NCBI GenBank assembly: GCA_035637655.1
Contig: DASPWT010000210.1
Coordinates: 1-60,222, forward strand
Source of the DNA: Burkholderiales bacterium
Lineage (GTDB): Bacteria; Pseudomonadota; Gammaproteobacteria; Burkholderiales; SG8-39
DNA: 60,222 nt
Reading direction: 5' to 3'
Shown piece by piece: positions 5,195 to 58,585 of the stretch. Position 1 is the first letter of the stretch; each line of letters opens with the position of its first letter. The translations under genes were made by a program, and so were the position numbers. The notes below the pieces were generated by a model that saw nothing but the letters and a program-made list of their open reading frames with translations, did no database searches and had not been told where the DNA came from.

Positions 5195-5258
5195 GAATCG
5201 CTCCTCTCAATACCGTGCCACGGTATGCCGCGCCGGAGCGCGAGTCAACCGAAGCGAC

Positions 5259-6230: not shown

Positions 6231-6235
6231 GAACT

Positions 6236-15191: not shown

Positions 15192-15264
15192 AAGCCGTGC
15201 ACCCGGGTCGCTGAAGCCGGAAGAGATCGAGGCGCTGTGGGCTTACGTGGTGGCGGGCGAGAAG

Positions 15265-15804: not shown

Positions 15805-15842
15805 CGCGGGCCGGACCCTTATTATAAGAACTTCGTTATCGC

Positions 15843-16811: not shown

Positions 16812-16836
16812 GCGCGGCCGCGCGCCCTTTTGTCTT

Positions 16837-18696: not shown

Positions 18697-18748
18697 GGCT
18701 GCTCTCCTTCGGTATGTAGCGACGTCTTCGCGGGCGATTCTACTACCG

Positions 18749-19903: not shown

Positions 19904-19916
19904 GATGCGATCCTTG

Positions 19917-20891: not shown

Positions 20892-21087
20892 TTTCTTCTC
20901 CTGAAGTTGAGCGCGGATCGTATCCTATCAGGGAACGCACGAGGCTCCACCCACGCCCGCTCACCGCGAGGCCGATCGGAGGCGGCGGATTTGAAAGCAA
21001 GAGCCGGAGTGCTTGCTTTCGTGCCGTCCCCGAACATGGCGCCATGGCGAGCCCAATGGCGCGCCGCCACCGAAAAGGAGCGTTATC

Positions 21088-29907: not shown

Positions 29908-29910
29908 CCC

Positions 29911-30558
29911 TCAGAGCCCCGAGATGTGCTCAACATATTGCCGCAGCGCTAGTAGGTTCTCCATAGAACCCTCGAGGAGCATGTCGAGTGGTGCGCGATT
30001 TCCAAGCTCAAGCCTGGGAGTACGCATCCACGCTTGCTCGCCCTCTCTAAACAGCCCACTCGCAAGGGCTTTGATCCGGAACAACGCGGCAATTCGCGCC
30101 TTGACATCGGCTCCGCGCAGGGAAGTGCGACCGGCCAAAATCGCTGCGACGGTAGGCTGGTCTCCGGGTTCATAACCTAGCAACCGAGTTGCCTGTGCTA
30201 GGTCAAGATTCCAAGACTGAAAAAGCTTCGATACAAATTGAACGGGACCAACAATACGATCCGCGCGAAATGGGTTTTCAGAGCCGCTCTGAGTCGTAAA
30301 GATTTTGAAACCGGCCTCTTTCGCCTCGCGCAAGAACTCATCTGCTTTCGCCCAGCGGAATGGCGACAATGACTCTTCCATCGCACGCCGCAAATCTTCA
30401 GATTGGACTAGGGCGCCTGTATGCGTTGGCCGTCTGAGTGTTGCAGGCGACTGCGAAGACTCGCCAAGGGATCGGCCGATTCCCTCTAATGGAGCAAATC
30501 TTATTCGCTCCGCAAGTGGCGTTTCCGCATCTTGCCCGTTCGGTCGTGGTCGAAGCAT
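29911..30558 (-). CDS. Xre/MbcA/ParS-like antitoxin with C-terminal DUF2384 toxin-binding domain
   Basis: The C-terminus AWMRTPRLELGNRAPLDMLLEGSMENLLALRQYVEHISG fits the DUF2384 signature. It carries a ~100-aa N-terminal extension. Confidence 0.7.
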   Translation of the reverse strand: MLRPRPNGQDAETPLAERIRFAPLEGIGRSLGESSQSPATLRRPTHTGALVQSEDLRRAMEESLSPFRWAKADEFLREAKEAGFKIFTTQSGSENPFRADRIVGPVQFVSKLFQSWNLDLAQATRLLGYEPGDQPTVAAILAGRTSLRGADVKARIAALFRIKALASGLFREGEQAWMRTPRLELGNRAPLDMLLEGSMENLLALRQYVEHISGL

Positions 30559-30567
30559 AGTTCGCCC

Positions 30568-31344
30568 TTAGCTCTTACTCGATGGTTGTGGTTGTTTCTG
30601 TGGTTCTAGACCCGCGCGCTTGAGAACCTCTTTCGTAAGATTGACGGCATGCTCTATTTTTTCCTTGAGTGCGGAGAATGCACCACCTTCACGAAATTGG
30701 GTGCTAGTCGAGAAGAATAGTTCCTTGGAAGAGCGTATCGCACGAGTGAGATCGAAGTTGAAAGTCCACTTCTCCTCATTCTCCACGAACTCTATGTGGA
30801 ATCCTGGAATTGCCTCAGCGTGGCGTTTGCCAGCTGGCGCAGCGAAGAGGTCGGATCGGTTGAATAGGCCTCGCAGCAATTCGGTTACGTTCGTCGAACT
30901 ATCCAGCAGCTCGATAAACATTCGCCCCCCTAGGATCTCTTCCTGTACGGCGAATTTGCTGCCGCCAACGGTTGCTAGGGCTTCGATGGTCAATTGAATG
31001 CAGTCCTCAATCGTGTCCAGGTCGCCAGGGGCATTGGGGTTTGTAAACTTTGCCGTAAAGACGTCTGCACGAATATCCAAACTTCCGTTGCCCGCAAATA
31101 GGTTGATGCGCGAATGAACGTCACCAACGCTACGACCAGAGTCGACGACGAGATCACTCGGCGCAAGGGCGTACTTGGGTGAAAGGCGACCGTGCACGGC
31201 CTCCAAAATAACCACGGGAGTTCCAGCCAGCACAAACAGCGGTGCTCGAAATTTTGCTTCGTACGTCACGTCAAAGAAGTTTGTCTTATATAGCATCGTG
31301 GCGGTCTGCCTAGCAACTTTCGGCGGCTGAGGACGACTAGTCAT
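30568..31344 (-). CDS. hypothetical protein, 258 aa
   Basis: ATG at 31344 overlaps the upstream stop (ATGA), and its stop lies 9 nt before the antitoxin start. No motif recognised; it vaguely resembles TIGR04255-size proteins, but this is not supported. Confidence 0.55.
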   Translation of the reverse strand: MTSRPQPPKVARQTATMLYKTNFFDVTYEAKFRAPLFVLAGTPVVILEAVHGRLSPKYALAPSDLVVDSGRSVGDVHSRINLFAGNGSLDIRADVFTAKFTNPNAPGDLDTIEDCIQLTIEALATVGGSKFAVQEEILGGRMFIELLDSSTNVTELLRGLFNRSDLFAAPAGKRHAEAIPGFHIEFVENEEKWTFNFDLTRAIRSSKELFFSTSTQFREGGAFSALKEKIEHAVNLTKEVLKRAGLEPQKQPQPSSKS

Positions 31345-31724
31345 ATCGATGAACCCAAGCCCCCGAACCAACTTGACGGTGACGACGAGCGGTGGGCGGG
31401 ATCGGATGACGCGAATGGGGGTGACTGAAAGAGTTGGCCACTGATAGTTTCCGCAATCAAATAGACATTGTAGTTGTAGATTTGCGGATCATCATTCGAA
31501 TCGATACGCTCGGTCAGCAAAGCGCCCCGGATTGCCGATGAGGGAGAGGTCAAACCGAAATCGCGCAGAGCGTCACCCGAAACAAGCAATATGCGGCTGA
31601 ACTGAGTGCTTGAGTCAGTCCACCGCGGCCAATTGCCACGCGAGAGTTGGTGCATCCCGTTCTCCAACGCGTTCCTTAGAACTGGCAGATCGAGGGGCAC
31701 CCATTCTGCTGTGCTGGAACGCAT
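31341..31724 (-). CDS. hypothetical protein, 127 aa
   Basis: The ATG lies 1 nt after the stop of the upstream ORF (TGAaATG). The N-terminal two-thirds look globular; the C-terminal tail is Ser/Pro-rich. Confidence 0.4.
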   Translation of the reverse strand: MRSSTAEWVPLDLPVLRNALENGMHQLSRGNWPRWTDSSTQFSRILLVSGDALRDFGLTSPSSAIRGALLTERIDSNDDPQIYNYNVYLIAETISGQLFQSPPFASSDPAHRSSSPSSWFGGLGSSI

Positions 31725-31725
31725 T

Positions 31726-32037
31726 TCAGGATGAAATCTTTTCGATTAAGAAGGATAAGCCCGAGGTTCTTGAGTTCACGTTCTTGATGCATTGAACCAA
31801 TGAACTTTCCATCTTACTTGTATTTTGGTCCGATTCGAGGGTCACATATATGGAGTGTGGTTCCCCAGGCAGAAGGTCCGTACGCGCTTCAACGAAAGAC
31901 TTTGCGAAATGGAGCCGCAGCGCCGTGGGCAGTTCCTCCAGCTCGTGCTCTAACCGAGCGGACGAAAGCTTGGATACCGCCCGCTCTACTTTCGGAACAC
32001 CATCTTCAGAGTGATATATCCGGTACTTTAGTTGCAT
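31726..32037 (-). CDS. hypothetical protein, 103 aa
   Basis: First gene of the cassette (MQLKYRIYHSEDGVPKVERAV...). No motif recognised. Confidence 0.4.
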   Translation of the reverse strand: MQLKYRIYHSEDGVPKVERAVSKLSSARLEHELEELPTALRLHFAKSFVEARTDLLPGEPHSIYVTLESDQNTSKMESSLVQCIKNVNSRTSGLSFLIEKISS

Positions 32038-45127: not shown

Positions 45128-45145
45128 GGTAGGGCGTGTAGGGAT
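45128..45145. repeat. 18-bp direct repeat of the tRNA-Lys 3' end (distal att-like site)
   Basis: GGTAGGGCGTGTAGGGAT is identical to 58511-58528, in the same orientation. Confidence 0.85.
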
Positions 45146-45162: not shown

Positions 45163-46317
45163 ATGGAGAAGAAGATCATTTTTTTGGCAGATGGAACGTG
45201 GAATAGTCCGGACCAGGACGAGGACTCGGATGGCTCGCCCGATTACACGAACGTGTATAAGTTGTTCCTGACGCTTGAAGGAAACGACCCGGCCGGGTCG
45301 GTGAAATTGGAACGCGAGCAAGAAAAGGAGCTGCGCGCCGACGGCATGGTGCAGATTGCCAAATATATTCACGGCGTCGGCGATTCGGGCAACCCGATCA
45401 AACGGATCATGGGCGGGGTGTTCGGAGCGGGAATCATCTCCCGGGTGGTACGCGGGTATACGTTCATTTCCCGCAATTACGAACCCGGGGCGCACATTCA
45501 CATCGTTGGTTTTAGTCGCGGCGCGTATACGGCGCGGGCGCTTGCCGGTCTCATCGTGTCTCAGGGCCTTTTGGGTCGGCCCATCACCCAGGACAAGGAG
45601 CTCGCCTATCGCTGCGGCAAGGAGGCGTGGTATCGCTATCGCGCGGCCGGTAAGACCAAGCCCAATTTTTGGGTGCGCACGGTCGAAGCCTTGGCCAATC
45701 CACGGGAATTGTTCACACGCGACGTTCTGAAGGACTCCGATCTGATACCGATCGATCGCATCGCCTCCGTTGGGGTGTGGGACACCGTTGGTGCCATGGG
45801 ACTGCCTGACTACAAGAAAGACGCTCGCATCGATGAATTCAAGTTCGCCAATACCCAGCTCAGCACCAAAGTAGCCAAGGGTTTTCACGCGGTCGCGCTG
45901 GATGAGCAGCGCGGCGATTTCACGCCGACACTTTGGGATGCCGCGTCCAACGTGACGCAGGTCCTCTTTCCCGGCGCACACGCCGACGTGGGCGGCGGTT
46001 ATCCGAATAACCCCGCAGAAAGCGGGCTGTCGAATGTACCGCTGGGGTGGATGATCGAGATGCTTAGGAGCGCGGGCGTGCGATTCGCGCAAAACGACGT
46101 AAAGCAGCTCGTGCCGAATGCCGCGGCTACCGCGCACAAGCCATGGGTTCACAATCCGTGGCCAGAACTCCCCAAGAGAAGCAGGACGTTTCCCAAGGGA
46201 ATAATCGAGCATCCATCCATTCTCGAACGCATGTCGGCGGCGGGCGTGATCGCAGAGCCGGGGGAAACTCGAGCTCCGTACCGGCCGAGCAATCGACCGT
46301 CATTGAACAGGGCTTGA
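45163..46317 (+). CDS. DUF2235-family alpha/beta hydrolase (T6SS Tle1-like phospholipase fold)
   Basis: IIFLADGTWNSP, KYIHGVGD, the nucleophile elbow VGFSRGAYTARALAG, WDTVGAMG and FPGAHADVGGGY. Confidence 0.75.
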   Translation: MEKKIIFLADGTWNSPDQDEDSDGSPDYTNVYKLFLTLEGNDPAGSVKLEREQEKELRADGMVQIAKYIHGVGDSGNPIKRIMGGVFGAGIISRVVRGYTFISRNYEPGAHIHIVGFSRGAYTARALAGLIVSQGLLGRPITQDKELAYRCGKEAWYRYRAAGKTKPNFWVRTVEALANPRELFTRDVLKDSDLIPIDRIASVGVWDTVGAMGLPDYKKDARIDEFKFANTQLSTKVAKGFHAVALDEQRGDFTPTLWDAASNVTQVLFPGAHADVGGGYPNNPAESGLSNVPLGWMIEMLRSAGVRFAQNDVKQLVPNAAATAHKPWVHNPWPELPKRSRTFPKGIIEHPSILERMSAAGVIAEPGETRAPYRPSNRPSLNRA

Positions 46318-46373: not shown

Positions 46374-47843
46374 CTATTTCCTGTTTTTGGGCTGACTGCG
46401 CATCTTCTCGTTAAATTGGTTACGTGCTGCAACGAACCCTGTGTACATCTGGCGCGCGAAGGCCACCATGTTGGCATTGAAGATGTCATTGTGGCCGTGC
46501 ATGATGTCGTCAGTCGTCCGGACCACCCAGAACGGGTTATGGTCTGGGTACGCCTCCTCGGTCCACCTCAACTCCAGTCCATCGCAAAGATACTGCTGGC
46601 CGGGTTTCGCTTTGCGGTGGTCGAACCCGCGTTCTGCAATTGCAAACATATAGGAATATTCGCGAGCGGCCTTGGCTTCAAAGTTGTTTTGAAGAGTATT
46701 GCTGGCAGTCCCTGATGCCGCCTTGCATGCTTCTTGGCAGTCGGTGTTGTCCGGTGCGCACAGACTTAGGTCGTGCGTGATATACCGTGGGTTGTGGCCG
46801 ACAGCCAGGACAGTCGCTGATTGCTCCTCCCCGGACGTTGCTTCAAACACCGTATTGAACCATCGCGCAAGTGGGAAGAAGTATCTGGTTGCCACGTCGG
46901 CCGTAGAAGTCGCGACTATGACGACTGGCAGCTGGTTACGCTCCACGTCCGGCAGCCTCCGAACGGCGGCCCTCAATACCTCGTAGCGTGCCCCTTCGAA
47001 CGCGGGATTTACGATCACGACCAAATCTCCCACCCGAGACATGTAGTGATCGTTTGGTTTCTCAACGTTACGCTTGAAACGTACCGCGTTACGGACGAAT
47101 TCGCCACTCAACGCTTCAAACGTGATCAATCCGCCAAAGGAGTGCCCTATAGTGAGGACAGTGACATTTCGTTCGCCCGTGGTTGGGTCCGTCCCAGTAT
47201 CACGAAACAAATCCAACCATCGAAAAAGTTCCTGAACTTGTCCTTGGGCAACTCGTTCGGCAGTATTCTTACGTTCCCAAAACGTAGTGTTGTCTAGAAT
47301 CGGGATGGTCAGTGACTTACCGCGCCAGCCGACATAAATACCAACGACTCTCGGTTTGGGGCCTTGACCAGCAGCGGCGGCTTCCAGAGTGTCGACCTGG
47401 CGGAGCAGCCTGCGAAACGCGTGCACGTTGGAATCCGTCGCCTCTGCGTTGTGCTGCCAACCGTGAACAAAAACAACGATAGATAACCTCTGTTGGGTCT
47501 TGTCGGGTTTCTCGCGGATTTGTCTGATCGATTCATACAGCTTACTCAGGTGATCTGCTTTGGTAGGGTTGCTCTCTTTGGCTGCGTCCTGCACCCAACC
47601 TTGATCGTCAAACTCGACAAACAAGACGTCGTAGTCTCGGTGGCTCTCGCGGGATTGCTTCCAGCAGTTGTCGCCCTCTTCGATCGGCGGCGCCGCAACT
47701 GACAGAAGCGCGGCGTCGTAGGCGCCGTAAGTTTTCTCACACGATGGAATCGCCCCGTAATCCCCATTGCGGTAGGGCACGCCCGACGTGCATGCAGTCA
47801 ATGCAGCGAGGACAGCAACCCGATACAAAGGCGGGTTTTTCAT
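46374..47843 (-). CDS. lipoprotein alpha/beta-fold serine hydrolase (esterase/lipase-like)
   Basis: Lipobox LAALTAC. Reads VVFVHGWQHN, YVGWRGKS and the nucleophile elbow TIGHSFGGLI. Confidence 0.65.
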   Translation of the reverse strand: MKNPPLYRVAVLAALTACTSGVPYRNGDYGAIPSCEKTYGAYDAALLSVAAPPIEEGDNCWKQSRESHRDYDVLFVEFDDQGWVQDAAKESNPTKADHLSKLYESIRQIREKPDKTQQRLSIVVFVHGWQHNAEATDSNVHAFRRLLRQVDTLEAAAAGQGPKPRVVGIYVGWRGKSLTIPILDNTTFWERKNTAERVAQGQVQELFRWLDLFRDTGTDPTTGERNVTVLTIGHSFGGLITFEALSGEFVRNAVRFKRNVEKPNDHYMSRVGDLVVIVNPAFEGARYEVLRAAVRRLPDVERNQLPVVIVATSTADVATRYFFPLARWFNTVFEATSGEEQSATVLAVGHNPRYITHDLSLCAPDNTDCQEACKAASGTASNTLQNNFEAKAAREYSYMFAIAERGFDHRKAKPGQQYLCDGLELRWTEEAYPDHNPFWVVRTTDDIMHGHNDIFNANMVAFARQMYTGFVAARNQFNEKMRSQPKNRK

Positions 47844-47886
47844 CTCTCTCTCCCTTAGGCGTGTTCGGTCCCGACGGAGAAAACGT

Positions 47887-49347
47887 TCATAGTGTTTTAA
47901 GGTACTCGATCAGCGCATCTTTCCCCGCGGCGGGCAAGCGCGTGCCGTATTCGTGCCCTCGATTGCCGCTGGCTCTCTCGCCCACGTTGAATTTGGTGCC
48001 GACGCGTTGCGCTTCTGGTCCCTGCGTGATGAAACCGACATTGACCGGATCGTATACGTCGTAGCCACGATAGAACTCTTTAGGTCGTTCGGTAGCGGGC
48101 TTGAGCAGATCGCGCAGCGTCGGCACCGAACCGTTGTGTAGATAAGGCGCGCGCAGCCAAATCCCGTCGAGGAACGCGGCGATGTAGCCGCTCGGTTCCG
48201 CCTCGACCAGTCCGCGGCGCTCGAGACCGAAAGCGCGCACGACCTTGTTTGCCTCAATCGCGGCCTTTTTGCTCCAGGTAAGGAGACGCTCTCGATCAGT
48301 GCCGACCTCCTCCACCGGCACCCGCGTGCCGGTCCGTTCCGAGGCGTGGCAGCCCGCGCAGTTGTTGTCGAAGATAGTCTTGCCGACCCTTGCCGCTTGC
48401 GGGTTGATGGGGAACGGATATTTCGGCGCCGGTAGCTCGCGCAGGTACTGTTCAAGCCAGTCGACCTCCTTCAGAAAGTCTCCCTTGTTGTGCGGGGCCG
48501 CACCAAGCAACCCGAGCGCCGAATCCATGATGACCGAGCGCGCGTCGTGGCTGTCGCCCGCCAAGTTCATGAGCATGCCTTTTTCGGGTTTGTACTTTTT
48601 GAGATTCCAGACCGAAGGCATGTCAGTCGGACCGATGGTGTCGTCCATCGGAAACCGGATCATGAAGTACTTGGTGAGGTTCATCGCATCGTCGCGCCCG
48701 CGACCCCATTCGGGGAAATCCTTGCGATAGACCCATGCGAACTGCTGCTCGCGCTCTAGCAGGCGTTTTTTGGTAATAGGGATGATGAGAAAGCGATAGA
48801 GTGCCCGATCAAGCGGCGAGAGCTGGGTGACGAGCTTGATCTCGCGCATGAGGTTATCGGCGTTGAAGCGCGGATCCTTGGCGCAGTCCACCAGGAAGCG
48901 GAAGAATGCCTCAAGGTTGAGCGTGTGATTCGGGCCGGTGGGCACGAAGGTCGGGTTCTCGTCGGAACGCTTGCGATAACTCGCGGTATGGCAGGCCGCG
49001 CAGTTGTTCGCCACGCGCGGGAAGCCGATCACCTTCTTGGTGAAACCGATCGGCAATTCCTGTCCTTGCTCCCACGCCACGCCGAATGAAGCGTAACCAC
49101 CCGGCCCCGGCAGTTTGTCGGGAAACACTCGCGGCAGCACGTAGAAGATCCAGTACGGAATGCCGGCATCGTGCTCGGCTCCGATGGAACCATACTTAAA
49201 CCGCATTTCAGGCGTGGCCGTGATCCATTCCGGCTGCGGTTCTTCGCGAAAGAATTTGTGCCAGCCGACGAAGGCCCCGATGGCGACCAGAACCAGTACC
49301 ACTGCGAGGACGAGCTTCCACTTTCGTTTCTTGGTTGCAGTTTGCAT
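47887..49347 (-). CDS. membrane-anchored di-haem c-type cytochrome, peroxidase/MauG-like C-terminus (486 aa)
   Basis: N-terminal TM anchor. CAACH and CAGCH. Reads LRAPYLHNGSVPTLRDLL ... GHEYG ... KDALIEYLKTL. Confidence 0.7.
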   Translation of the reverse strand: MQTATKKRKWKLVLAVVLVLVAIGAFVGWHKFFREEPQPEWITATPEMRFKYGSIGAEHDAGIPYWIFYVLPRVFPDKLPGPGGYASFGVAWEQGQELPIGFTKKVIGFPRVANNCAACHTASYRKRSDENPTFVPTGPNHTLNLEAFFRFLVDCAKDPRFNADNLMREIKLVTQLSPLDRALYRFLIIPITKKRLLEREQQFAWVYRKDFPEWGRGRDDAMNLTKYFMIRFPMDDTIGPTDMPSVWNLKKYKPEKGMLMNLAGDSHDARSVIMDSALGLLGAAPHNKGDFLKEVDWLEQYLRELPAPKYPFPINPQAARVGKTIFDNNCAGCHASERTGTRVPVEEVGTDRERLLTWSKKAAIEANKVVRAFGLERRGLVEAEPSGYIAAFLDGIWLRAPYLHNGSVPTLRDLLKPATERPKEFYRGYDVYDPVNVGFITQGPEAQRVGTKFNVGERASGNRGHEYGTRLPAAGKDALIEYLKTL

Positions 49348-49380
49348 TTTTTCCCCTCGGCAGGACGCCGGCGACGCGCG

Positions 49381-50994
49381 TTAGAACGTTTTCAGATACT
49401 CAATGAGGGCGTCCTTGTCCCCGGGCCCAAGTTGCGTACCGTAGGCTGGGCCTTCGTGGCCCTTATTCCCGTTGCCGGGCTGGCTGGTGTCGTAGCGGAA
49501 GTACTTGCGACCGCCTTCTTCAGCGACGGTGCTGACGAAGCCGACCTTCCCCGGGTCATACACGTCGTAGCCGCGGTAAAACGTCCTCGGCCGCTTCCCG
49601 CTCGGCTCAAGCAGGTCGCGTAGCGTTGGGACCGATCCGTTATGCAAGTAAGGCGCGCGGAGCCACAGACCATCGAGCGGCATGTTGGCGTAGCCGAAGG
49701 TTTTGCGAAAATGGCAGAAGCGCCACTCGTATCCCGCGTACAAAGCGCTCTGATTCACAGCCAGGGTATAGGTATATGAATCGAGACGGCGGCGGTCAGT
49801 GCCTATCGCCTCGATCGGTGTGATCTTGCCCACTAAGGGACCGTAGAGCACCTCATCCGGCTCGCCCGGCTTTAGGCATTCGATCTTCTGGCCGCCCTCG
49901 GCAGCGCCGAATGCCTGCCCGCTTGCACCGTGACATCCACTGCAGTATTTCTTGTAAATTGGTGCGCCCTTTTCCGCACGCACCTGGTCGATCGGAAACG
50001 GGTAGGACGGTGGGTTCGCGTTCCGAAGCCAGTCCTCAATCCGTCTGATGCGGCCAAGATCTATGGTAGGCGGTGTAGTGCCGGTGCCAAATGCCGCACT
50101 CTTGTTGCGCTCTTCCACCATATTGTTGTTGCCGTCCCAGTGTAACTGCATGCCCTTCTTCCTCTGCTGGTTCCATATGGCAGGAAAGTCAGCGGGGGCA
50201 TTCATTTCGCGGTCCGGCAGTTGGCCCATAGGAAAGTTAAATAACACTTTCGCTGCGTTAAAAGTGTCCACCCGCCCCGGGCCCCAATCGTGTTGCGCAT
50301 ATACGAACTGAAAACGCCCGCGCAGCATGAGCAGGCGTTCGCGCATAATCCAAACGGCGAGCGGATAGACCACGTAGCGGTCGATAAGTCCCAAATCTTC
50401 GCCGCGGGCCTGAAGAAGGCGTCTGACCTCGGGGATGATGAACTCGCCGCTGAATTTGGGGTCAGCGCTGCAATCAAAGAAGAATTTCTCGAACGCCATG
50501 ACGTTGAAGGTGTTGGCGGGCATGCCGGCATAGATTTCCGGCCCACTCTGTTCGGTTTTGCGCACGGTACTGGTATGACACGCCGCGCAGTTCAGAAAAG
50601 TGCGCTCTATACCCATAACCGAGCGCTTGGAGGCGCCAACCGGCAGGTCGTGGCCCGTTTCATAAATCATCCCGAAAGCGGCGTAACCTTTGCCGTCCTC
50701 GTGGCGTGCGCCGGGCGAAGCAAACCCTTTATCGGGGAGGTGTTCAGCGCACACCTGCGGTAGCGCCTTCCAGATCCAGAGCGGAAAGCCGGATTCGCGC
50801 TCGCCTCCAGTGGAACCGTACTTGAAATGCTCTACCACGTCAGCGTAGTCCGTTGGGGTGTCTTCATTCCATAGCCAGACGAGGTACCCGCAAACGAGTA
50901 GCGCGACAACAACAGCGAGCGTGACGATGGCTCGGCACCAGTCACCTAATAGTGCGTTCAAGTTCATGGAACCTGCACCTTGTTTTTGTTCCAT
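49381..50994 (-). CDS. membrane-anchored di-haem c-type cytochrome, paralogue of 47887-49347 (537 aa)
   Basis: N-terminal TM anchor. CAACH and CSGCH. Reads LRAPYLHNGSVPTLRDLL ... KGHEGPAYG ... DKDALIEYLKTF. Collinear similarity to the downstream gene. Confidence 0.7.
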   Translation of the reverse strand: MEQKQGAGSMNLNALLGDWCRAIVTLAVVVALLVCGYLVWLWNEDTPTDYADVVEHFKYGSTGGERESGFPLWIWKALPQVCAEHLPDKGFASPGARHEDGKGYAAFGMIYETGHDLPVGASKRSVMGIERTFLNCAACHTSTVRKTEQSGPEIYAGMPANTFNVMAFEKFFFDCSADPKFSGEFIIPEVRRLLQARGEDLGLIDRYVVYPLAVWIMRERLLMLRGRFQFVYAQHDWGPGRVDTFNAAKVLFNFPMGQLPDREMNAPADFPAIWNQQRKKGMQLHWDGNNNMVEERNKSAAFGTGTTPPTIDLGRIRRIEDWLRNANPPSYPFPIDQVRAEKGAPIYKKYCSGCHGASGQAFGAAEGGQKIECLKPGEPDEVLYGPLVGKITPIEAIGTDRRRLDSYTYTLAVNQSALYAGYEWRFCHFRKTFGYANMPLDGLWLRAPYLHNGSVPTLRDLLEPSGKRPRTFYRGYDVYDPGKVGFVSTVAEEGGRKYFRYDTSQPGNGNKGHEGPAYGTQLGPGDKDALIEYLKTF

Positions 50995-51068
50995 GCGGAT
51001 TCTCCTTCTCCGTTGCGCCCGCTGATCGATGGCGCGTCTCTATCGTGTTCGGGACCGGATTTCACGCC

Positions 51069-53372
51069 TCACAGGCAGCCGCGTAGGTTCTCGTAATTTC
51101 CGTTCAAAAGACGATCAAGATCGGGGGTGCGCCCCGTTTGCGCTTGAAGCAGGTCAACGGCGTACTGCCTGAGTCCCGCCAGTTCCACGCTCCCAGGCCA
51201 CTTCTCCGGTTCCGCATTGAGCTGCGTCAAGGCCAACATGGGTGGCATGGGCGTTTTCGGCCGGTCGTCATGCCGCAGTTGCCACATGCTCAGGCGGAAA
51301 AAAATGCGCTCGGCACAGTGCCTGAGATTCGTCGCTACTTGATCGGCGTCGCCGTAGAGGAAGTTCGGCGGCGAGGGCTCCGACGTTTGATGGCACAAGG
51401 CGCAGTATTGATAGAGCGGCGCTGCGCCCGCAAGCGCCGATTGCATCGCTCGCTCGCCTTCATCAAGGCGCGCGGCGGCCATGTTCTTATCATCAAGGCA
51501 GCACCACTCGCCGGTGGGCATACCTAGACGAGCAAAAAGGGGCGGCAGCACGGCGGCCCGGCGGAAAGGCATTGCGGCGAGCACATCCTTGGCGGTACTT
51601 TCGTCCTCCGCAAGCCGCGCGAGCGCGGCGGCAACTGGTGCAAAATCGTCGAGCGCGCTCATGATTATTTCACCCTTGAGCTCGACGGTTGCGCTGGGGG
51701 AGTTGCTCTCCGGCGCAGCCGCAGAACGCCAGCGCAGATTGATCCGGTCAACGGCGTTGCCGTCGATTAGGCGCACGTGCCGCCCCTGCCGCAGTGCGCG
51801 AACGACGAGCGCTGAGTACCCGTTGCTCCATTCCATTCGTTCGGCATGCACCTCAAACTCGCCGGTATCGCCTGCTATCCCGGACATGCTCAAATTCCTT
51901 ACAGTGCCTGTCGCTGCGCTCCCAGTCGGTATTTCTATGCGTCCGGAAACTCGTAATGCGCTCTCGATGTTTTCTTTCCCCGGGCAACGAAAATCGAGCC
52001 GCTGCGCGAACGACCACGGTCGCGAGAAGACCAAGCTGCACTCGCTTGACCACGTCCGGTGCGGCTGACCAGGTTTTGAGCCGAGGGCGAATAAATGAGC
52101 ATCTAGGCGTCTTACGTCCTCCGTAGCAATGAATTGAGACAGGCCGGCAATCATTCGCCTGGCATAGTCGTTAGCATCGGGAGGCCAGATTTCCAGTGGC
52201 TCCCGCGGGACCAAAGGATCGAAGCGCACTGGCACATGCGCTAGCGTCGTAGCGCCGGCCAACCCCGGATCGTCCGCACCACCCACCAGGGGATCGCGGT
52301 TGGGGATGTCCGGATTCGGAATCGCCAGGCCTCCGGGCCAACGCTCTTTGGTTGTCTGACCGAGTAACGCGAGCAGATTCTCGCGATAGGTCAGCGCGGT
52401 CTGATCGAAACCGTACTCGCTGCTCAAGCGATATTGGAGCAGCGCCTGAAGTAGCGCCGCCCGGCACCGTGCTGACCTGCGGCTGTTCTGGGTATCCTCA
52501 CAGCCTTCACGCCAAAGCTTTTGATACACCGACAGTAGGTTCGCACGCTCCGTGGCATCGTCGAGCGCGTTTGGAACGTCCACGCCACGCGCAACGGGAA
52601 TGCCGTAGAAAACCCGGCTGCGCGCCGTGAGCAGCGCGGCGATGCGCGGATTGGCGTTGGTCTCGTCCCACAACTGACGTGAGAATAGCGGCGCGTGGTT
52701 CTGGTGGCAGGTGACACATACAGTCCGGTTGGCGTAGACGACTTTAGGCGTGGCCCCGACACGGTAGTCTTTGACCAACTGGAACTCAAAGCGGCCGGCC
52801 GCCTCGTTGTAGCTGATCACCTCGATCAGATTGGCCTTCTCTTGGTAGCCAAGATAGAGTCGGTCTTTGAGCAGCATGCGGTGGTACCCTGCGGGTGCCG
52901 TAGCGGGCGACTCGGTATCCACTGCGACAACAGCACGCGGGTACTTGAAGAACTCGGGCCCTGCCGCACTCCGCTGCAGGGAGCGGCCCAATGGGATCAG
53001 CACGCGCTTCAGACACGAAGCTTCGACCGTTCCGATGCCACGCTCCTTGGGGGTGGCACGACCATCGCCTGCGCACCCGAGCCGAGAGTCGATCTTCTTC
53101 GTAAGTGCCTCGAAGGGAAACGGCACCCTGGTTGACTCGCCATCCATGACCACAAAATCGAAGAGGGAGCGGCCCACTGGCGGCAAGCTCTCGCCCGCAC
53201 TTGCAGGGTCAGCCGCCCACACAGGTGCTACTTGTTGAGCGAGGCTTGAGACCTGCTTCCCCTGTACGGTCTCTGCGTTCTGAGCCCCCTGCCAATGCCA
53301 GAGCCCGAACGCGATCGCCATAGAGAAACCGAGCACGCTCAGCAGGGCCGCAGACTTGAGCGGGAGTTTCAT
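51069..53372 (-). CDS. secreted or anchored protein with two CxxCH motifs, otherwise unknown (767 aa)
   Basis: N-terminal hydrophobic segment. CVTCH mid-protein and CALCH near the C-terminus. No other motif recognised. Confidence 0.6.
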   Translation of the reverse strand: MKLPLKSAALLSVLGFSMAIAFGLWHWQGAQNAETVQGKQVSSLAQQVAPVWAADPASAGESLPPVGRSLFDFVVMDGESTRVPFPFEALTKKIDSRLGCAGDGRATPKERGIGTVEASCLKRVLIPLGRSLQRSAAGPEFFKYPRAVVAVDTESPATAPAGYHRMLLKDRLYLGYQEKANLIEVISYNEAAGRFEFQLVKDYRVGATPKVVYANRTVCVTCHQNHAPLFSRQLWDETNANPRIAALLTARSRVFYGIPVARGVDVPNALDDATERANLLSVYQKLWREGCEDTQNSRRSARCRAALLQALLQYRLSSEYGFDQTALTYRENLLALLGQTTKERWPGGLAIPNPDIPNRDPLVGGADDPGLAGATTLAHVPVRFDPLVPREPLEIWPPDANDYARRMIAGLSQFIATEDVRRLDAHLFALGSKPGQPHRTWSSECSLVFSRPWSFAQRLDFRCPGKENIESALRVSGRIEIPTGSAATGTVRNLSMSGIAGDTGEFEVHAERMEWSNGYSALVVRALRQGRHVRLIDGNAVDRINLRWRSAAAPESNSPSATVELKGEIIMSALDDFAPVAAALARLAEDESTAKDVLAAMPFRRAAVLPPLFARLGMPTGEWCCLDDKNMAAARLDEGERAMQSALAGAAPLYQYCALCHQTSEPSPPNFLYGDADQVATNLRHCAERIFFRLSMWQLRHDDRPKTPMPPMLALTQLNAEPEKWPGSVELAGLRQYAVDLLQAQTGRTPDLDRLLNGNYENLRGCL

Positions 53373-53422
53373 TCGACTTGCCCTCTCCGATCTGCCTTAT
53401 CGATTGGTGCCCGTTTCTGACG

Positions 53423-54343
53423 TTATTTCGCCGCAGCCACCAGCCGCTGCTGTGTTCCAGTCCAACAGTCCTCATTGACCTGACCGGTCTTAAGGAATGC
53501 CGGACCATCGCGCTCGGCGATTTCCTTGTTGTAGAGCGTGAAGGTCAGCAGAAAGACACGGTCCAGGTACGCGCGACCTAGATAAAATCCTGGACGCACC
53601 ATGCGGATTTCGTCGCGCACTCTCGCGCCGCGGCGGCCAGCAAGGAAGTCGGGTTTCTCCTGGTAGCCGGGAATCTCGTCGGTGAAGAAATAGTCAATAA
53701 TGATGGACTCGCGCCGCGCATCGAGCAGGCTTTGCCCGCAGTAAAGTTTGGCTGGAAACAAGAGCCAAGTTTCCTTGCCGTTGACGCTCAGCCTTCTTGG
53801 TTCACCTTCGACGAGCCCCACCTTCTTCAGGATGTCGAGCTCCTCGATGCGGTTTCTCAACACGCGCTCGTCCCGAAAAAACACTTTTCCCTTCCACAAA
53901 GCCTCCCCGAGCACCGTCAGCTTGACGCCTTTGAGTTCCAGAGCCAATCCTGCGATGCCGCCCGCGATTTCGGACGCCCGAAAATCGCCGCTCGATCCAC
54001 GAGGAAATAAAATCTTGCCGTCGAATGCGCCATCCGGTATGGGGCCAGCCGTGATCCGAGCGTAGATTTGATCGATTTGTTCTTGGTCCAGACCCTCCAG
54101 ATTCTCCGGCGTAATCTTGTTGAGGTCTGCCGCCGTGAGGGGATACTTGTACTCGATCTGCGCGAAGTCGACCTTGCCTTGATAGCCTGGGCCAGATGGG
54201 GCCACGAATTTGACTTCGGGCCCTTGCGGCTTGAACCGATCGCATTCCGTCAATAAGAGCACAACGAGTGCGCTCATACCAGCGATAAGTAACACTCGTT
54301 TGTCGCGCGAGATCGTCGGATTCCATTTGCTTTGCGTGTCCAT
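53423..54343 (-). CDS. membrane-anchored hypothetical protein (306 aa)
   Basis: Single N-terminal TM helix (VLLIAGMSALVVLLLT). No recognisable motif. Sits inside the haem-protein operon with 19- and 50-nt spacers. Confidence 0.55.
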   Translation of the reverse strand: MDTQSKWNPTISRDKRVLLIAGMSALVVLLLTECDRFKPQGPEVKFVAPSGPGYQGKVDFAQIEYKYPLTAADLNKITPENLEGLDQEQIDQIYARITAGPIPDGAFDGKILFPRGSSGDFRASEIAGGIAGLALELKGVKLTVLGEALWKGKVFFRDERVLRNRIEELDILKKVGLVEGEPRRLSVNGKETWLLFPAKLYCGQSLLDARRESIIIDYFFTDEIPGYQEKPDFLAGRRGARVRDEIRMVRPGFYLGRAYLDRVFLLTFTLYNKEIAERDGPAFLKTGQVNEDCWTGTQQRLVAAAK

Positions 54344-54362
54344 GGCTGATCTCCTAGTCAGG

Positions 54363-56993
54363 TCACATGGTGGCGAGGAATGCTGTCAGCGCTTTCTTGT
54401 CTTCCTCGGACAAGTCTTCACCGAAGCGGTGACCTTCGTTCTCGACTTCTTGCATACAGGTGTCGTATCGGGTGCGCAGAAAGTCGCGCTTTTCCTTGAC
54501 TATCTCGACAAAACGTCCCGGGTGCTTCAACAGATCATCGGCAATGCTCTGCAGTTCGGGGACGATGTCCTTCTTGCCGGCCGCCTCCAGGCGCGCGGGA
54601 TTCCGCTTGGCGAGGTACAGGTCGTCGATGAATTCCTTGTGCATGAGACCGTTGAGGAATCCCGCATGGTTGCCCCTTGCAATCCTTACCTCGCCTGACC
54701 CGAACAACGCCTTTTCTTGCTTGCCATCCCAAGTGCGGACTCCGAGATCCACGATCACGTCGTCGTCGGTCAGGGTCGTCTTTGTTCCACGCTCCTTCGG
54801 GTGCAGGAGCTCATACATCGACTGCTTATAGAGCTTGAAGCGGCCCTCGACGCTCGGGTCGTATCTGAAGCAAGCAGGCTGCTTGTCGAGCAGCTTGCCG
54901 CCGGCGTCCACGTAGCGCGCGCGGAAGAACTCGTTTTCCGGGTTTTTGGGCGTGCCACAAAGTTCCGGACCGATAGCGTTGTTATGCATGAGAGGCGCTG
55001 TCGCCCAGACATTCAGCAAGGAGATGTTGCGGTAGTAACCGCGACCACCGTTCTTGAACTCATCGCGCTCCGGAATATCGGGCACCGGCTTTTTCGCGCG
55101 CATCGTCTCTGAGCCGTACTCGTAAAAGACACGTCCCGCCATGTGATTTGAATGCAGCGCCCGGCAGCGGAACGTACCAACCTCGGTAGCGGGCGTCGCC
55201 TGATCGTTGCCGAGGAAATCCTCGCGCACCTTGCGTGGATGCTCTTTCGCCAGCGCATAGAAATCACGATTCCTGAATGGGCCACCGACGTTCTCGGGGA
55301 TGCTCGAATGACAACGCGCACAGCTTGCGGCGAAGACAGTCTTGCCCCGGGCAACGGCTCGCTTGCCGAACTCTTTATCTAGCTCGTCGATGAGGTCCTG
55401 CTGGGTGTACGGAGGAGCCGCCGGATTCCTTGTCTTGCGTTCGTTGTTTCTCGCGACGTGTAGGTCCATCGCGTCGGCTTCCGCCGAGAAAAAGAAATCA
55501 AGTATGTTGGACAGCCGGTCCTCGATGGCGCGGAAATTTGGACAGTCGCGTCGGCACTGGCCGATGTTGAAAGGCGTCTGGCCAAAGCCGCGGGCCTCTG
55601 GATCCAATTGGCGGAAGTCCGTCAAATGATTGACCCAGCACGCCTCCGCGCAGGAACCAATGTTGAAATAGACGCGTTGGATCGCCTCGCGTGCGCCGAT
55701 CGAATCTTCACCGCCCTTAAGAATGTGGTGCACGCCGCTTAGCGTCACAGACTTGCCGCCGATCCTGGCTGGTGTTTTGTCGTCGCTACGCGTGCTTCGC
55801 TGCCAACACTTGCTATCGCGACCCGGCTCGCACCAGCACTTTTCTTCATCCTTTTCCGCGCCGCAGGTGTCGACCTTGCGCCATTTGTTGATCAACTCTC
55901 CGGTGAAAGTGGGACGTTGCGACAGATTGATGATCGCGTTGATCGTGCCCGGATTGTTCACCTGGTCGTGCGGGATCGCCGAGGTGTCAAGGACACCAGG
56001 CCGTGCATGCGCAAACATCTGCCACTCGAGGCTAGTGCGCGCCATCCCGGAGCCGAAAAGCTCCGACATCCGAGTGTATTGGTTGCCGATAAGGCCTTTG
56101 ATGTTTTCCCACCGTGGGCGAGCAGGGTTTATCGGGGGATTAAGCGGGTCAAACGCGATGTGGCACGAGCCGCAGGTCGTCCCGATGAGGTACGGTGGCT
56201 CAACCGACGCGTCGGCCAGTTTGCTCACCCTTGCGTCCGAAGGGATGCCGGTTTGTTTGACTAGCTTCTTGCTGAAGCCTTCCCAACCGACCGAGCCAGC
56301 GTTGAGCTGCCGCCATTTCTTCGCATCGAAGCGTGGGTTAGGAAACTTGCGAATGCCCAGTGTACCTGTTGAGGTACCGAACTTGAGGTCACATGGGGAC
56401 TGACGCTGATCCAACTTGCTTCCCTTCGTGTGCGGATCATCGGGATCGAGCGCCGCATCCTTCAAACCGCACGCAGGATCGACGTAGCCGATCTTGCCGA
56501 CGTATTTCAGTAGGACGTCGTCCCCGGGGCACCAATCGAAGCCAAAGGTTTCCTCCAGGCTCCTGGCCGGACAATTGGGATCGCCAGGCTTGCAGCAAGC
56601 CGGATCGTTTATGATGCCCCAGGCGTAGAAGCGGTCGTCTCGCTGGTCCGTTCGCAACACCCTATACCAGTCGATCAACACGCCGACACGTTGCTGAAAG
56701 GTATAGGTATGAAACCGGTCGTTGCCAGCAGTGGCTTTGAACCAGATCAGCCGCCCGACACACTCCGACTCATTCAATCCCTCGCGCGCACAAGCCTGGT
56801 AATAAGGCGCGTCCTGATCAACAATAGATTTTTCCGGCGTGGGTCGTGCGGCGTTAGCCCCTTGGCCAACCGTCGCAATAGCAGATCTGTCATCCGCAGC
56901 CTGGGCCCCCTGCGGCGTCGGGTCGATAACTGCATAGGCCATTACAAGGGAAACAAGCAGCACCACAAATCCACCGACAGCGACCCGACTCAT
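54363..56993 (-). CDS. large Cys-rich di-haem c-type cytochrome, peroxidase-like C-terminal region (876 aa)
   Basis: N-terminal TM or signal segment. CGSCH and CARCH. Reads WATAPLMHNNAIGPE ... GHRFGEDLSEEDKKALTAFLATM. Many additional Cys pairs. Confidence 0.65.
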   Translation of the reverse strand: MSRVAVGGFVVLLVSLVMAYAVIDPTPQGAQAADDRSAIATVGQGANAARPTPEKSIVDQDAPYYQACAREGLNESECVGRLIWFKATAGNDRFHTYTFQQRVGVLIDWYRVLRTDQRDDRFYAWGIINDPACCKPGDPNCPARSLEETFGFDWCPGDDVLLKYVGKIGYVDPACGLKDAALDPDDPHTKGSKLDQRQSPCDLKFGTSTGTLGIRKFPNPRFDAKKWRQLNAGSVGWEGFSKKLVKQTGIPSDARVSKLADASVEPPYLIGTTCGSCHIAFDPLNPPINPARPRWENIKGLIGNQYTRMSELFGSGMARTSLEWQMFAHARPGVLDTSAIPHDQVNNPGTINAIINLSQRPTFTGELINKWRKVDTCGAEKDEEKCWCEPGRDSKCWQRSTRSDDKTPARIGGKSVTLSGVHHILKGGEDSIGAREAIQRVYFNIGSCAEACWVNHLTDFRQLDPEARGFGQTPFNIGQCRRDCPNFRAIEDRLSNILDFFFSAEADAMDLHVARNNERKTRNPAAPPYTQQDLIDELDKEFGKRAVARGKTVFAASCARCHSSIPENVGGPFRNRDFYALAKEHPRKVREDFLGNDQATPATEVGTFRCRALHSNHMAGRVFYEYGSETMRAKKPVPDIPERDEFKNGGRGYYRNISLLNVWATAPLMHNNAIGPELCGTPKNPENEFFRARYVDAGGKLLDKQPACFRYDPSVEGRFKLYKQSMYELLHPKERGTKTTLTDDDVIVDLGVRTWDGKQEKALFGSGEVRIARGNHAGFLNGLMHKEFIDDLYLAKRNPARLEAAGKKDIVPELQSIADDLLKHPGRFVEIVKEKRDFLRTRYDTCMQEVENEGHRFGEDLSEEDKKALTAFLATM

Positions 56994-57175: not shown

Positions 57176-57955
57176 CTATCTCGCCCGATCGAGGATTGTG
57201 TGCCAGAAGAATCCGTTCTGGAACGCCGAGCAGGCGAGTGCGACGAAGCTCGTCAGGGTGGCGGCTGCAGTCACATCAGCCCCCTGCATAATGCCCAGAA
57301 AAACGATGGGAGAGACCAAGATTGGCAGGAGGCCGGCTCGAATCCGCGCCTTCAGGTTGACGCCCTTCTGATCCAGGAGCGTGTCGAAGAATATCTTCGC
57401 GCCCATGCCGAGCACCATGCAAACGAACAACACCACATAGAAGTTCGCGAGCGCCGAAGCGTCGGCGTTCGCAGCGCCGCCGGGGGACGAGGTTTTAGGC
57501 GGTGGTGGGGCGGCGCGTGCATCGGCGGGCGGACTTTCCGTGATGACCGGCGGCTGCGCACGTGCACTCGGAACGAGGAGGATCAGTTGCGGTAATGATG
57601 TCACCCAGGCCGAAGGCTGATCCACGACAGCCTGTTGGATGTTGTCGCTGACGACCCATCCGTGCTGCCACTTTCCGCTGCTCCAGTATGCGATCTGCGT
57701 CCAGCTTTGCGAGATCACGCCGAAGCGCACGGTGCGTTGGGCACAGACGAAGACCCTCACTTTCGCTCCGAGCACAGCGACGGGGGAACCGTAGACCCAG
57801 CCGTTCGCGGTATTGAATTCGGTCGCCGGGCGCGCGTAGACGGAGGTCTCGCGGGTCACTGCGGCACTCACCTTGCAGTCCTGCGCCGCGACGATCGGAA
57901 CGGGTCCCAGCAACACGCAGAGAAAGGCGAGCACGCGATTGTGCGCAGTCGTCAT
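57176..57955 (-). CDS. membrane protein with a secreted SH3-like N-domain, Pro-rich linker and C-terminal TM helices
   Basis: ATG at 57955 gives the signal peptide MTTAHNRVLAFLCVLLGPVPIVAAQ; upstream alternative starts exist. The C-terminal half is hydrophobic (FYVVLFVCMVLGMGAKIFF..., LLPILVSPIVFLGIM). Confidence 0.5.
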   Translation of the reverse strand: MTTAHNRVLAFLCVLLGPVPIVAAQDCKVSAAVTRETSVYARPATEFNTANGWVYGSPVAVLGAKVRVFVCAQRTVRFGVISQSWTQIAYWSSGKWQHGWVVSDNIQQAVVDQPSAWVTSLPQLILLVPSARAQPPVITESPPADARAAPPPPKTSSPGGAANADASALANFYVVLFVCMVLGMGAKIFFDTLLDQKGVNLKARIRAGLLPILVSPIVFLGIMQGADVTAAATLTSFVALACSAFQNGFFWHTILDRAR

Positions 57956-58509
57956 CCGTGCACCAGAGCGATGTCCTACGCCGTTGTCCGACATGATGTC
58001 CTCCTGTTGCAACTCACCACATATCAATCGCGCGCCGATGCCAATCGAGCTTTGATTCCTTGTGCAGTCGGAGAGGGTCTTCAGCGGACCGACATGGCCG
58101 CTGAGGTGGGCTTGCTCCGAGCAGTGGGAATGAGAGGGCGGTAGAGGACGTAAGCACCACCGCATCCATGGCGCAGAACATCGCGATCAAAGATTTTGCA
58201 GAACAAACTCCATGGCCCCCCATCCCCCTGGGCACGCAGTTTTGCGTGTTGGTGCCCCCTGGCGCCGCTGTGGTAGCTGGAACTGAAACGGAGAACAAAA
58301 TCTACGCGCGTCGTTCCTATGGGTCAAATAAGAAATTTCGAATTTAGGGACAGACCCGACATTTCCTGTAGGGGTTTACCCCGGCTCGGCCTCGCCCGGG
58401 CCATCGCAGTATCTACGCAGGGCCGTCGGGATTGATCTATCTACGAGTCAATGCTACGACAAATCCTATACTTCAAAGGACTGGCAAATGACTAAGCCTC
58501 TGAATTTAT

Positions 58510-58585
58510 TGGTAGGGCGTGTAGGGATCGAACCTACGACCAACGGATTAAGAGTCCGCTGCTCTACCAGCTGAGCTAACGCCCC
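58510..58585 (-). tRNA. tRNA-Lys (anticodon CUU)
   Basis: Minus strand GGGGCGTTAGCTCAGCTGGTAGAGCAGCGGACTCTTAATCCGTTGGTCGTAGGTTCGATCCCTACACGCCCTACCA. It folds as a canonical 76-nt cloverleaf: 7-bp acceptor, GCTC/GAGC D-stem, GCGGA/TCCGT anticodon stem with loop CUCUUAA, GTAGG/CCTAC T-stem, and encoded CCA. Confidence 0.95.
58511..58528. repeat. tRNA-proximal copy of the 18-bp att-like direct repeat
   Basis: GGTAGGGCGTGTAGGGAT lies within the tRNA-Lys 3' portion (T-stem 3' strand through CC) and is identical to 45128-45145. Confidence 0.85.

Follow-up and report, generated by a model that had tools for sequence, protein, structure and literature searches.

The closest described relatives of the system reported here are pairs of di-haem enzymes. 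RoxA and RoxB, which are diverged paralogues, act synergistically in the cleavage of polyisoprene (PMC6311187), and the oleate 10S-dioxygenase PA2077 and the 7,10-diol synthase PA2078 form a tandem pair in Pseudomonas aeruginosa (PMC4496055). In all members of this RoxA branch that we found characterised, O2 binds to the N-terminal haem, and the C=C bonds of hydrophobic chains are oxygenated (PMC6311187, PMC4496055). Here we describe an operon of six genes, A to F, located in a 60,222-nucleotide (nt) stretch of DNA from a Burkholderiales bacterium (contig DASPWT010000210.1 of assembly GCA_035637655.1; we refer to this whole stretch as the window). Two of the genes, D and E, encode a tandem RoxA-like pair, which belongs to a conserved five-gene cluster, A-B-C-D-E, that we tentatively propose to oxidise a hydrophobic substrate outside the cytoplasm.

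The operon and its RoxA-like pair

The operon comprises the following genes.

Gene A, 54363..56993, minus strand: secreted or anchored, predicted di-haem cytochrome c of 876 amino acids (aa), from the open reading frame (ORF) list
Gene B, 53423..54343, minus strand: membrane-tethered protein of 306 aa, predicted calycin-like beta-barrel, no haem motif
Gene C, 51069..53372, minus strand: predicted di-haem protein of 767 aa, novel family
Gene D, 49381..50994, minus strand: RoxA-like, predicted di-haem enzyme of 537 aa with an N-terminal anchor
Gene E, 47887..49347, minus strand: RoxA-like, predicted di-haem enzyme of 486 aa with an N-terminal anchor, paralogue of D
Gene F, 46374..47843, minus strand: lipoprotein alpha/beta hydrolase of 489 aa, last gene of the operon, accessory and lineage-specific

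An earlier reading of this stretch, made from its letters (the sequence-only reading), had called six co-directional minus-strand genes 19-74 nt apart, and the ORFs lie just so, the gaps from A to F being 19, 50, 74, 33 and 43 nt. A GGAG-type ribosome-binding site precedes all six start codons, and no minus-strand terminator-like hairpin was found in the intergenic gaps of A to F. The four products said to have two CxxCH motifs apiece have exactly those motifs (A, CGSCH274 and CARCH558; C, CVTCH219 and CALCH657; D, CAACH136 and CSGCH351; E, CAACH116 and CAGCH330), and the Cys-Cys-His residues of all eight are invariant columns in alignments of orthologues from several phyla. Because of this invariance the motifs are not chance occurrences, and A, C, D and E are each predicted to carry two c-type haems. 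Each of A, B, C, D and E has exactly one hydrophobic segment, at the N terminus, in agreement with the single anchor or signal proposed earlier. Comparison with a relative of 83-95% identity (locus L003, discussed below) gave ratios of nonsynonymous to synonymous substitution rates (dN/dS) of 0.10-0.29 for A to F, which indicate purifying selection on all six genes. Thus two possibilities that the sequence-only reading had held open, that the genes are decaying and that homologues lack the CxxCH motifs, were not borne out.

D and E scored 186.4 and 169.2 bits, respectively, against NF040606 ("di-heme-cytochrome C peroxidase"), and because both scores are above the curated cut-off of 150 bits, both proteins are members of this family by the NCBI rule. 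B, C and F gave no hit to NF040606, and A, at 36 bits, is not a member. D and E are not unrecognised proteins, since both pass a curated model, under a name for which we located no experimental basis. Indeed, we found no paper that mentions NF040606 or tests a member. It is an annotation-only family, and part of the cluster already has a name in annotation pipelines.

Both proteins also match Pfam PF21419 (RoxA-like_Cyt-c; E-value 9e-16 for D and 7e-17 for E), to which their C-terminal block, APYLHNGSVPTL ... GHE ... ALIEYLKT, corresponds. They are tandem paralogues with 37% identity. When a profile of 26 D/E orthologues was compared with the PDB, RoxA (4b2n, E 8e-24) was the sole significant solved structure, which upholds a comparison with rubber oxygenases that the sequence-only reading had made in passing; weak matches were obtained to the di-haem enzyme 6e1c (E 0.019) and to 9qdt, a probable cytochrome c peroxidase (CCP; E 0.055). 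The match to 4b2n consists of three collinear stretches that take in the inter-haem region, haem 2, the MauG motif and the C-terminal tail with the axial His. Invariant in D/E are C116/C119/H120, C330/C333/H334 and the MauG motif APYLHNGSVP, which has the RoxB form. The invariant G464-H465 aligns with the axial ligand H641 of RoxA ("...NGGHDF..."), and the C-terminal haem of D/E is predicted to have His as its second axial ligand.

The kinship of CCP/MauG type that had been claimed holds for D, E and the C-terminal third of A. Canonical membership was rejected, as PF03150 (CCP_MauG) was matched by none of A, C, D and E at E <= 0.1. The further claim that three of the proteins end in the CCP/MauG block stands for D and E, where the block is intact, and only in a degenerate form for A; C is without it.

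Two residues of RoxA are of particular relevance to the pair. Phe317, near the O2-binding haem, is essential in RoxA and conserved in RoxB, and at the position of Trp302 one partner has Trp and the other does not, both in RoxA/RoxB and in PA2077/PA2078 (PMC6311187, PMC4496055). In a hidden Markov model alignment to 4b2n, D orthologues are invariant at the Trp302 position (HWDGNN), whereas E orthologues are variable. The stretch around the Phe317 position is weakly aligned (E 4e-4); there, D orthologues read SAAFG, with Phe in 11/13 and Met or Thr in 2/13, and E orthologues read SALG or SAIG, placing Leu or Ile at this position. D, and not E, appears to retain equivalents of the RoxA residues that hold O2 and bridge the haems.

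Rubber oxygenases are recognised by two CxxCH motifs together with a MauG motif PY(F/L/M)HNGSVP (PMC6311187, Table 1), and D and E have this combination; C has no MauG motif. D and E further resemble RoxA/RoxB (4b2n; Steroidobacter cummioxidans, Rhizobacter gummiphilus) in the spacing of the CxxCH motifs (about 215 residues, compared with 199 in RoxA), in the MauG motif PY(F/L)HNGSVP, the tail ...ALIEYIKTL and the C-terminal His, and in forming a diverged paralogue pair. They differ in being smaller (54-60 kDa, versus about 70 kDa), in carrying an N-terminal anchor that looks uncleaved, where RoxA/RoxB are secreted and soluble, and in having A, B and C beside them in a cluster of five genes, partners that have not been reported for rubber degraders. 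To our knowledge, the cluster hosts Nitrospira, Accumulibacter and Acidobacteria are not rubber degraders.

The FadCcp pair PA2077/PA2078, compared here from the features given in PMC4496055, likewise consists of tandem RoxA-like paralogues (43% mutually identical, 37% for D/E). It is periplasmic, with the MauG motif PYFHNGSVP, CAGCH/CAACH-type haem motifs and an unsaturated-lipid substrate, and only one partner has the inter-haem Trp (W251 versus S243), in parallel with D versus E. Unlike D and E, these proteins are about 625-635 aa long and have cleaved signal peptides and an equivalent of Phe317 in both partners, and no A/B/C partners have been reported for them (PMC4496055). The superfamily of bacterial CCP (bCCP), MauG, MbnH and BthA (PF03150) is similar in having an N-terminal catalytic haem, a C-terminal electron-transfer haem in a cytochrome c-like domain and a MauG motif after haem 2, and the substrate protein of MauG and of MbnH is encoded next door, as B adjoins A. 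However, A, C, D and E are 1.5-2.5 times longer than members of that superfamily, C is not detectably related to it, and in this cluster haem 2 is predicted to have His as its ligand, as opposed to Met or Tyr. We found no paper describing the A-E cluster, although literature coverage is incomplete and such absence is not proof, and no profile or structure hit led to a characterised pathway; the earlier statement that no characterised system has this composition is in keeping with both results.

Genes A, B and C and the conservation of the cluster

The product of A begins with 540 Cys-rich residues that include the site of haem 1 (CGSCH274) and that had no match in Pfam, NCBIfam or PDB searches. 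A RoxA-type C-terminal haem domain follows, with CARCH558, MHNN670 and the invariant G854-H855 as its landmarks. About 25 Cys of the N-terminal part are invariant in the orthologue alignment, and orthologues in other phyla are 50-80% identical. Only the last 330 residues are shared with D/E (hhalign probability 98%, E 4e-14), with long insertions inside, and both the C-terminal block (APLMHNNAIGPE ... GHRFG ... LTAFLATM) and the MauG motif (APLMHNNAIGP) are degenerate. The whole protein gave weak family hits only and nothing significant in the PDB. Its architecture is new and makes use of a RoxA-type C-terminal domain.

B and A are the two most conserved members of the cluster. B has more than 3000 homologues, about 70% identical and all annotated as "hypothetical". 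Its own lipobox is atypical (LTEC); Cys34 at the lipobox is conserved, and 30 of 45 homologues have a canonical lipobox. No Pfam or NCBIfam family contains it, and a suspected resemblance to GXWXG/DUF4334 was set aside after a Pfam scan of 45 members at E <= 1 showed nothing relevant and a PDB profile search was also empty. The AlphaFold2 model (predicted local distance difference test, pLDDT, 73; predicted template modelling score, pTM, 0.71) gave 4mve as its best Foldseek match (E 0.0096, probability 1.0, TM-target 0.59); the next matches, at E 0.1-0.5, were CRABP2, lipocalins and NanoLuc. With modest confidence, and without sequence-level support, we predict that B is a calycin-like barrel. 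Its invariant Trp, Tyr and Cys residues are W150, Y201, C202, Y218, Y227, Y254, Y259, C293 and W294.

C, with more than 1700 homologues, has the site of haem 1 (CVTCH219) in a new fold, a middle eight-stranded barrel at about 438-574, and a C-terminal class-I cytochrome c-like domain with CALCH657 and an invariant PMPP loop (708-711); PF13442 was matched by 25/32 family members. Foldseek on the AlphaFold2 model (pLDDT 78, pTM 0.77) aligned the barrel only, to 2q03 (E 0.035, probability 0.97) and PloI4, and returned no full-length neighbour. This is a weak indication, again without support at the level of sequence, that the middle domain may resemble calycin-like barrels. We considered whether C could be a divergent relative of A, D or E and rejected this, given hhalign probabilities of 22% and 6% and no PDB or fold match beyond the barrel. 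A sequence-profile search of the PDB gave no relative of C, and with the hhalign probability of 22% C is not counted in the CCP/MauG superfamily. No curated model exists for the families of B and C.

To examine the neighbourhood in other genomes, we used the C alignment to scan GTDB genomes, one for each species, which yielded at least 400 confirmed C relatives, and retrieved 80 loci. One carrier, Lysobacter cavernae KCTC 42875 (L043), is available in culture. Neighbouring ORFs were called with a filter on codon-position GC content (GC1>GC2) and tblastn maps, because longest-ORF calls gave shadow ORFs in high-GC loci; counts of neighbour families are approximate because of residual ORF-calling noise. 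The C relatives are found in Burkholderiales, Rhodocyclaceae (Accumulibacter, Dechloromonas/Azonexus, Zoogloea, Propionivibrio), Nitrospirota, Acidobacteriota (Thermoanaerobaculia, Holophagales), Rokubacteria, Binatia, Chromatiaceae, Lysobacter and Luteimonas.

Whether the gene neighbourhood recurs across genomes had been left as a question by the sequence-only reading, and for A to E it does. In 61 of the 66 loci with enough flank, A-B immediately precedes C on the same strand, and D and E are directly downstream of C in 36/63 loci and somewhere within the locus in 39/52. The gene order in Acidobacteria is D-E-A-B-C. A-B is the tightest pair, and is inverted as B-A in two loci (L056, L057). 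At L058 1700-4556, just upstream of a regular A-B-C-D-E cluster, there is a second, divergent pair of B-like and A-like genes (28% and 25% identity), which hints at a broader family of A-B pairs. About a dozen beta-proteobacterial loci have, after C, three genes (432, 493 and 413 aa) in place of D-E. The 493-aa protein is DyP-peroxidase-like, the other two are without a family, and none has an export signal. An example of the trio is L001 12492-16509, and it is also seen in L005, L007, L011, L012, L014, L019, L020, L022, L024, L047 and L080.

Gene F occurs in the lineage of the window and in L003 but in no other locus. In evolutionary terms the six-gene unit of the sequence-only reading thus reduces to five genes, A-B-C together with D-E. 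The description of F as a lipoprotein serine hydrolase that closes the operon is supported by its lipobox (LTAC) and by the nucleophile elbow GHSFGG visible in the translation, but F is not conserved and its Pfam alpha/beta-hydrolase score of 23.5 bits is below the gathering score of 26.3. It belongs to a large, uncharacterised family (2546 representatives) for which there is no specific Pfam model, and its dN/dS against L003 is 0.20. A phmmer search revealed no relationship between F and the lipases that adjoin the cluster elsewhere.

Possible functions of the cluster

We believe that lipid or isoprenoid oxidation is the best-supported model for the cluster, because of the RoxA pattern in D/E, the two predicted barrels, the membrane tethering and the presence of F; D and E are likened to the RoxA-branch pairs because they are tandem diverged paralogues with the same asymmetry at the inter-haem Trp. 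We put forward, tentatively, that A-B-C-D-E may carry out an O2- or H2O2-dependent oxidation of a hydrophobic substrate outside the cytoplasm, the likeliest substrate being an unsaturated lipid or an isoprenoid. The haem-enzyme core would act at the periplasmic face of the membrane. D would perform the first oxygenation and E would convert the product of D, while the barrel of the membrane-tethered B and that of C would hold or pass on the hydrophobic substrate. A and C would be larger catalytic or electron-relay partners, each with one class-I cytochrome c-type haem and one haem in a novel domain, and the strict adjacency of A and B suggests that these two form a complex. In this genome, F would release or trim the substrate, and the whole module would move as cargo of small islands that target tRNA genes.

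A number of observations weigh against this model, which rests on analogy. D scores 79 bits against RoxC, 54.5 against RoxB and 54 against RoxA, and E scores 68, 65 and 56 bits against these equivalog models, for which the cut-offs are 900-1000; moreover, the N-terminal catalytic domains of D/E are not significantly alignable to RoxA. The barrel evidence for B and C is weak (Foldseek E about 0.01-0.04; pLDDT 73-78). The invariant residues of B are mostly charged (Arg, Asp and Glu, with Tyr as listed above), and a passive lipid carrier would not usually be about 70% identical across phyla. Nor is F conserved. The DyP-like trio found in place of D-E fits a peroxide-centred function as well as an oxygenase. 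Finally, the patatin, Tle1-like, caspase and TIR proteins encoded beside the cluster in other genomes (see below) belong to another compartment than A-E, because they are without signal peptides, and such neighbours may mark a type of genomic region and not a shared pathway.

The foremost alternative is a periplasmic peroxide-reducing or electron-transfer chain, in which D and E would be anchored peroxidases, A and C would relay respiratory electrons by way of their class-I cytochrome c domains, and H2O2 or organic or lipid hydroperoxides would be detoxified or respired. The name attached to NF040606 points in this direction, but the canonical CCP_MauG Pfam model is matched by no protein of the cluster. 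The second haem of A, C, D and E would lie in a cytochrome c-like domain (PF13442, PF00034 matches), and the invariant PMPP loop of C is typical for His/Met cytochromes, yet the second ligand of the C-terminal haem is predicted to be a RoxA-type His and not the Met of peroxidases. The N-terminal anchors of D/E resemble that of the quinol-linked anchored peroxidase YhjA (PMC10301912); however, no quinol dehydrogenase or other electron entry is encoded in the cluster. A DyP-type peroxidase-like gene does substitute for D-E in some loci, but the DyP-like proteins are without export signals. Four large di-haem proteins and B also far exceed the needs of peroxide removal. We regard a peroxide chain as unlikely.

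Somewhat less likely again, in our estimation, is a maturation system of the MauG/preMADH or MbnH/MbnP type, in which A, and perhaps D and E, would oxidise residues of B or C to give a protein-derived cofactor, with B as the end product. It would account for the near-universal adjacency of A and B, including the inverted loci and the second divergent pair at L058, and for the extreme conservation of B, whose invariant Trp, Tyr and Cys together with the charged residues are more suggestive of an active site than of a lipid pocket. A keeps a degenerate MauG-type motif, and diverse protein-modifying roles are established for di-haem enzymes (PMC6405878, PMC11951088). On the other hand, no member has a sequence match to the MauG, MbnH or BthA families, the closest characterised relatives act on small hydrophobic molecules, and there is no indication of what a matured B would do.

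The island, its neighbours and the significance of the cluster

In the window, the whole operon lies within a 13.4-kb segment that also holds a Tle1-like phospholipase gene and a membrane-protein gene and that is bracketed by two perfect copies of an 18-nt direct repeat, GGTAGGGCGTGTAGGGAT (0 matches in 100 shuffles). The right copy is the 3' end of a tRNA-Lys gene. The features of this segment, other than A to F, are listed here.

Left 18-nt repeat copy, 45128..45145, no strand assigned: far end of the island, between a core gene with high GC content at third codon positions (GC3) and the Tle1-like gene
Tle1-like (DUF2235) phospholipase, 45163..46317, plus strand: PF09994 E 1e-65, convergent with F, no signal peptide, GC3 0.71
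Membrane-protein gene, 57176..58165, minus strand: longest ORF 329 aa; 272 aa (57176-57994) in identical metagenome contigs
Right 18-nt repeat copy, 58511..58528, no strand assigned: 3' end of the tRNA-Lys gene
tRNA-Lys(CTT), 58510..58585, minus strand: called by ARAGORN, integration target of the island

This signature of a direct repeat at a tRNA 3' end leads us to consider the segment an integrated island. The GC content is 0.56-0.60 over the region, compared with 0.64-0.68 in the flanks, and GC3 is 0.63-0.74 in the operon, the Tle1-like gene and the membrane-protein gene, compared with 0.84-0.89 in the flanking genes, with the shift occurring at the left repeat. Seven metagenome contigs, from soil or other sources, carry the island in the same setting. 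Pfam and NCBIfam scans of its eight genes gave no integrase hit, and the island would have to be mobilised in trans or to have lost its integrase. The product of 57176-58165 has a signal-like segment, three C-terminal hydrophobic helices and no family hit, and no orthologue of the gene was found beside the cluster in any other locus examined; with a gap of 182 nt to A in addition, the 329-aa ORF was rejected as a seventh operon gene. A second GC dip, at 30001-32000 of the window (0.534, compared with about 0.65), contains part of a group of three small minus-strand ORFs at 29281-31371 and was possibly also acquired.

In L003, the A-F module begins 320 nt after a tRNA-Ser(GGA) gene (3698-3788) and is followed by a SLATT-like gene of 186 aa; a 14-nt repeat of the tRNA-Ser 3' end is present at 3775-3788 and at 15359-15372, just past the SLATT-like gene. 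Two different tRNA genes have thus served as insertion sites of the A-F module, tRNA-Lys in the window and tRNA-Ser in L003. L003 is labelled "uncultured Enterobacteriaceae", unlike its relatives, which are mostly Burkholderiales and Rhodocyclaceae, and the bin label may be wrong. In L035, L044 and L079, too, the cluster adjoins a tRNA gene.

Outside A-E, no synteny is conserved among the loci. The commonest Pfam families in the 134 nearest-neighbour ORFs were patatin (8), TIR (4), caspase (4) and Tle1-like (3). Patatin, TIR, caspase, Tle1-like and CHAT-type genes are typical of defence or conflict islands. Tle1-like genes also flank the cluster in L039, L040, L050 and L051, and four unrelated kinds of lipase recur beside it: patatin, DUF2235, an LCAT-like domain and F. 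Genes of conflict-system type, comprising patatin, GH25, caspase, TIR, TIR-CHAT-STAND, nSTAND1, trypsin with TPR-S, and Macro, were seen in the flanks of L059, L061, L067 and L073 (about 4300-6400 and 14950-21050), at L001 1-2196, and in L041, L053, L029, L062 and L072. A DUF7379-LCAT-CHAT protein of 1711 aa is encoded near a cluster as well. All conflict-type neighbours that were checked (patatin, Tle1-like, caspase, TIR) are without signal peptides. The suggestion in the sequence-only reading of an oxidative attack on a lipid thus gains indirect support, in that patatin is the commonest neighbour (8/134), and loses some through the missing signal peptides; it remains speculative.

An NtrC-type sigma-54 response regulator is encoded within 4 kb of the cluster in nine loci of different phyla (L006, L027, L036, L042, L049, L054, L065, L077 and L078; for example, L054 2084-3451). 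We dropped the idea of sigma-54 control of the cluster, since a strict -24/-12 pattern was present upstream of A in 1/66 loci and there was no convincing site in the window.

These surroundings raise the last alternative, a conflict or defence module that cooperates with the phospholipases and the TIR, caspase/CHAT and SLATT proteins encoded nearby and that might, for instance, oxidise the membrane lipids of its own cell or of a competitor; it may share its chemistry with the lipid-oxidation model and differ in biological role. The operon does travel on a tRNA-Lys island with a Tle1-like phospholipase, and in L003 on a tRNA-Ser island with a SLATT-like gene following, and patatin, TIR, caspase and Tle1-like genes head the nearest neighbours, with CHAT, trypsin with TPR-S, nSTAND, Macro and GH25 nearby. 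Yet most loci are without such a neighbour, several such neighbours were recorded in genomes that are close relatives of one another, co-location with such genes in variable regions is to be expected of any mobile cargo, the neighbours would be cytoplasmic and A-E periplasmic, such cytochromes are unmentioned in the two conflict-system papers searched, and no PADLOC model matched any of the eight island genes, by which a known anti-phage system was also rejected. We rank this role below the other two as improbable, and the same holds for its fullest form, in which A-E would be an unrecognised lipid-oxidising machine, made up of four di-haem cytochromes plus two novel families and carried on small islands at tRNA genes, acting with phospholipases and death or defence effectors (patatin, Tle1-like, TIR, caspase/CHAT, SLATT), so that membrane-lipid peroxidation would serve defence, antagonism or programmed death. 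If the link to phospholipase and defence genes were functional, it would define a new type of conflict system.

What is new in this locus is the occurrence of di-haem enzymology of the bCCP/MauG/RoxA type in a multi-protein, mobile context, along with two new protein families, B and C. The RoxA-branch activities known so far are few, namely rubber cleavage and oleate dioxygenation/diol synthesis. RoxA-like pairs are more numerous and phylogenetically broader than this, and are fixed in a cluster with three further proteins. The hosts include organisms of nitrification and of phosphorus removal from wastewater (Nitrospira, Accumulibacter, Dechloromonas/Azonexus) and abundant soil phyla. Identification of the substrate would add to extracytoplasmic oxygenase/peroxidase chemistry, with possible use in the cleavage of hydrophobic polymers and for oxylipins, and would give a function to thousands of genes now annotated as "hypothetical" or "cytochrome c".

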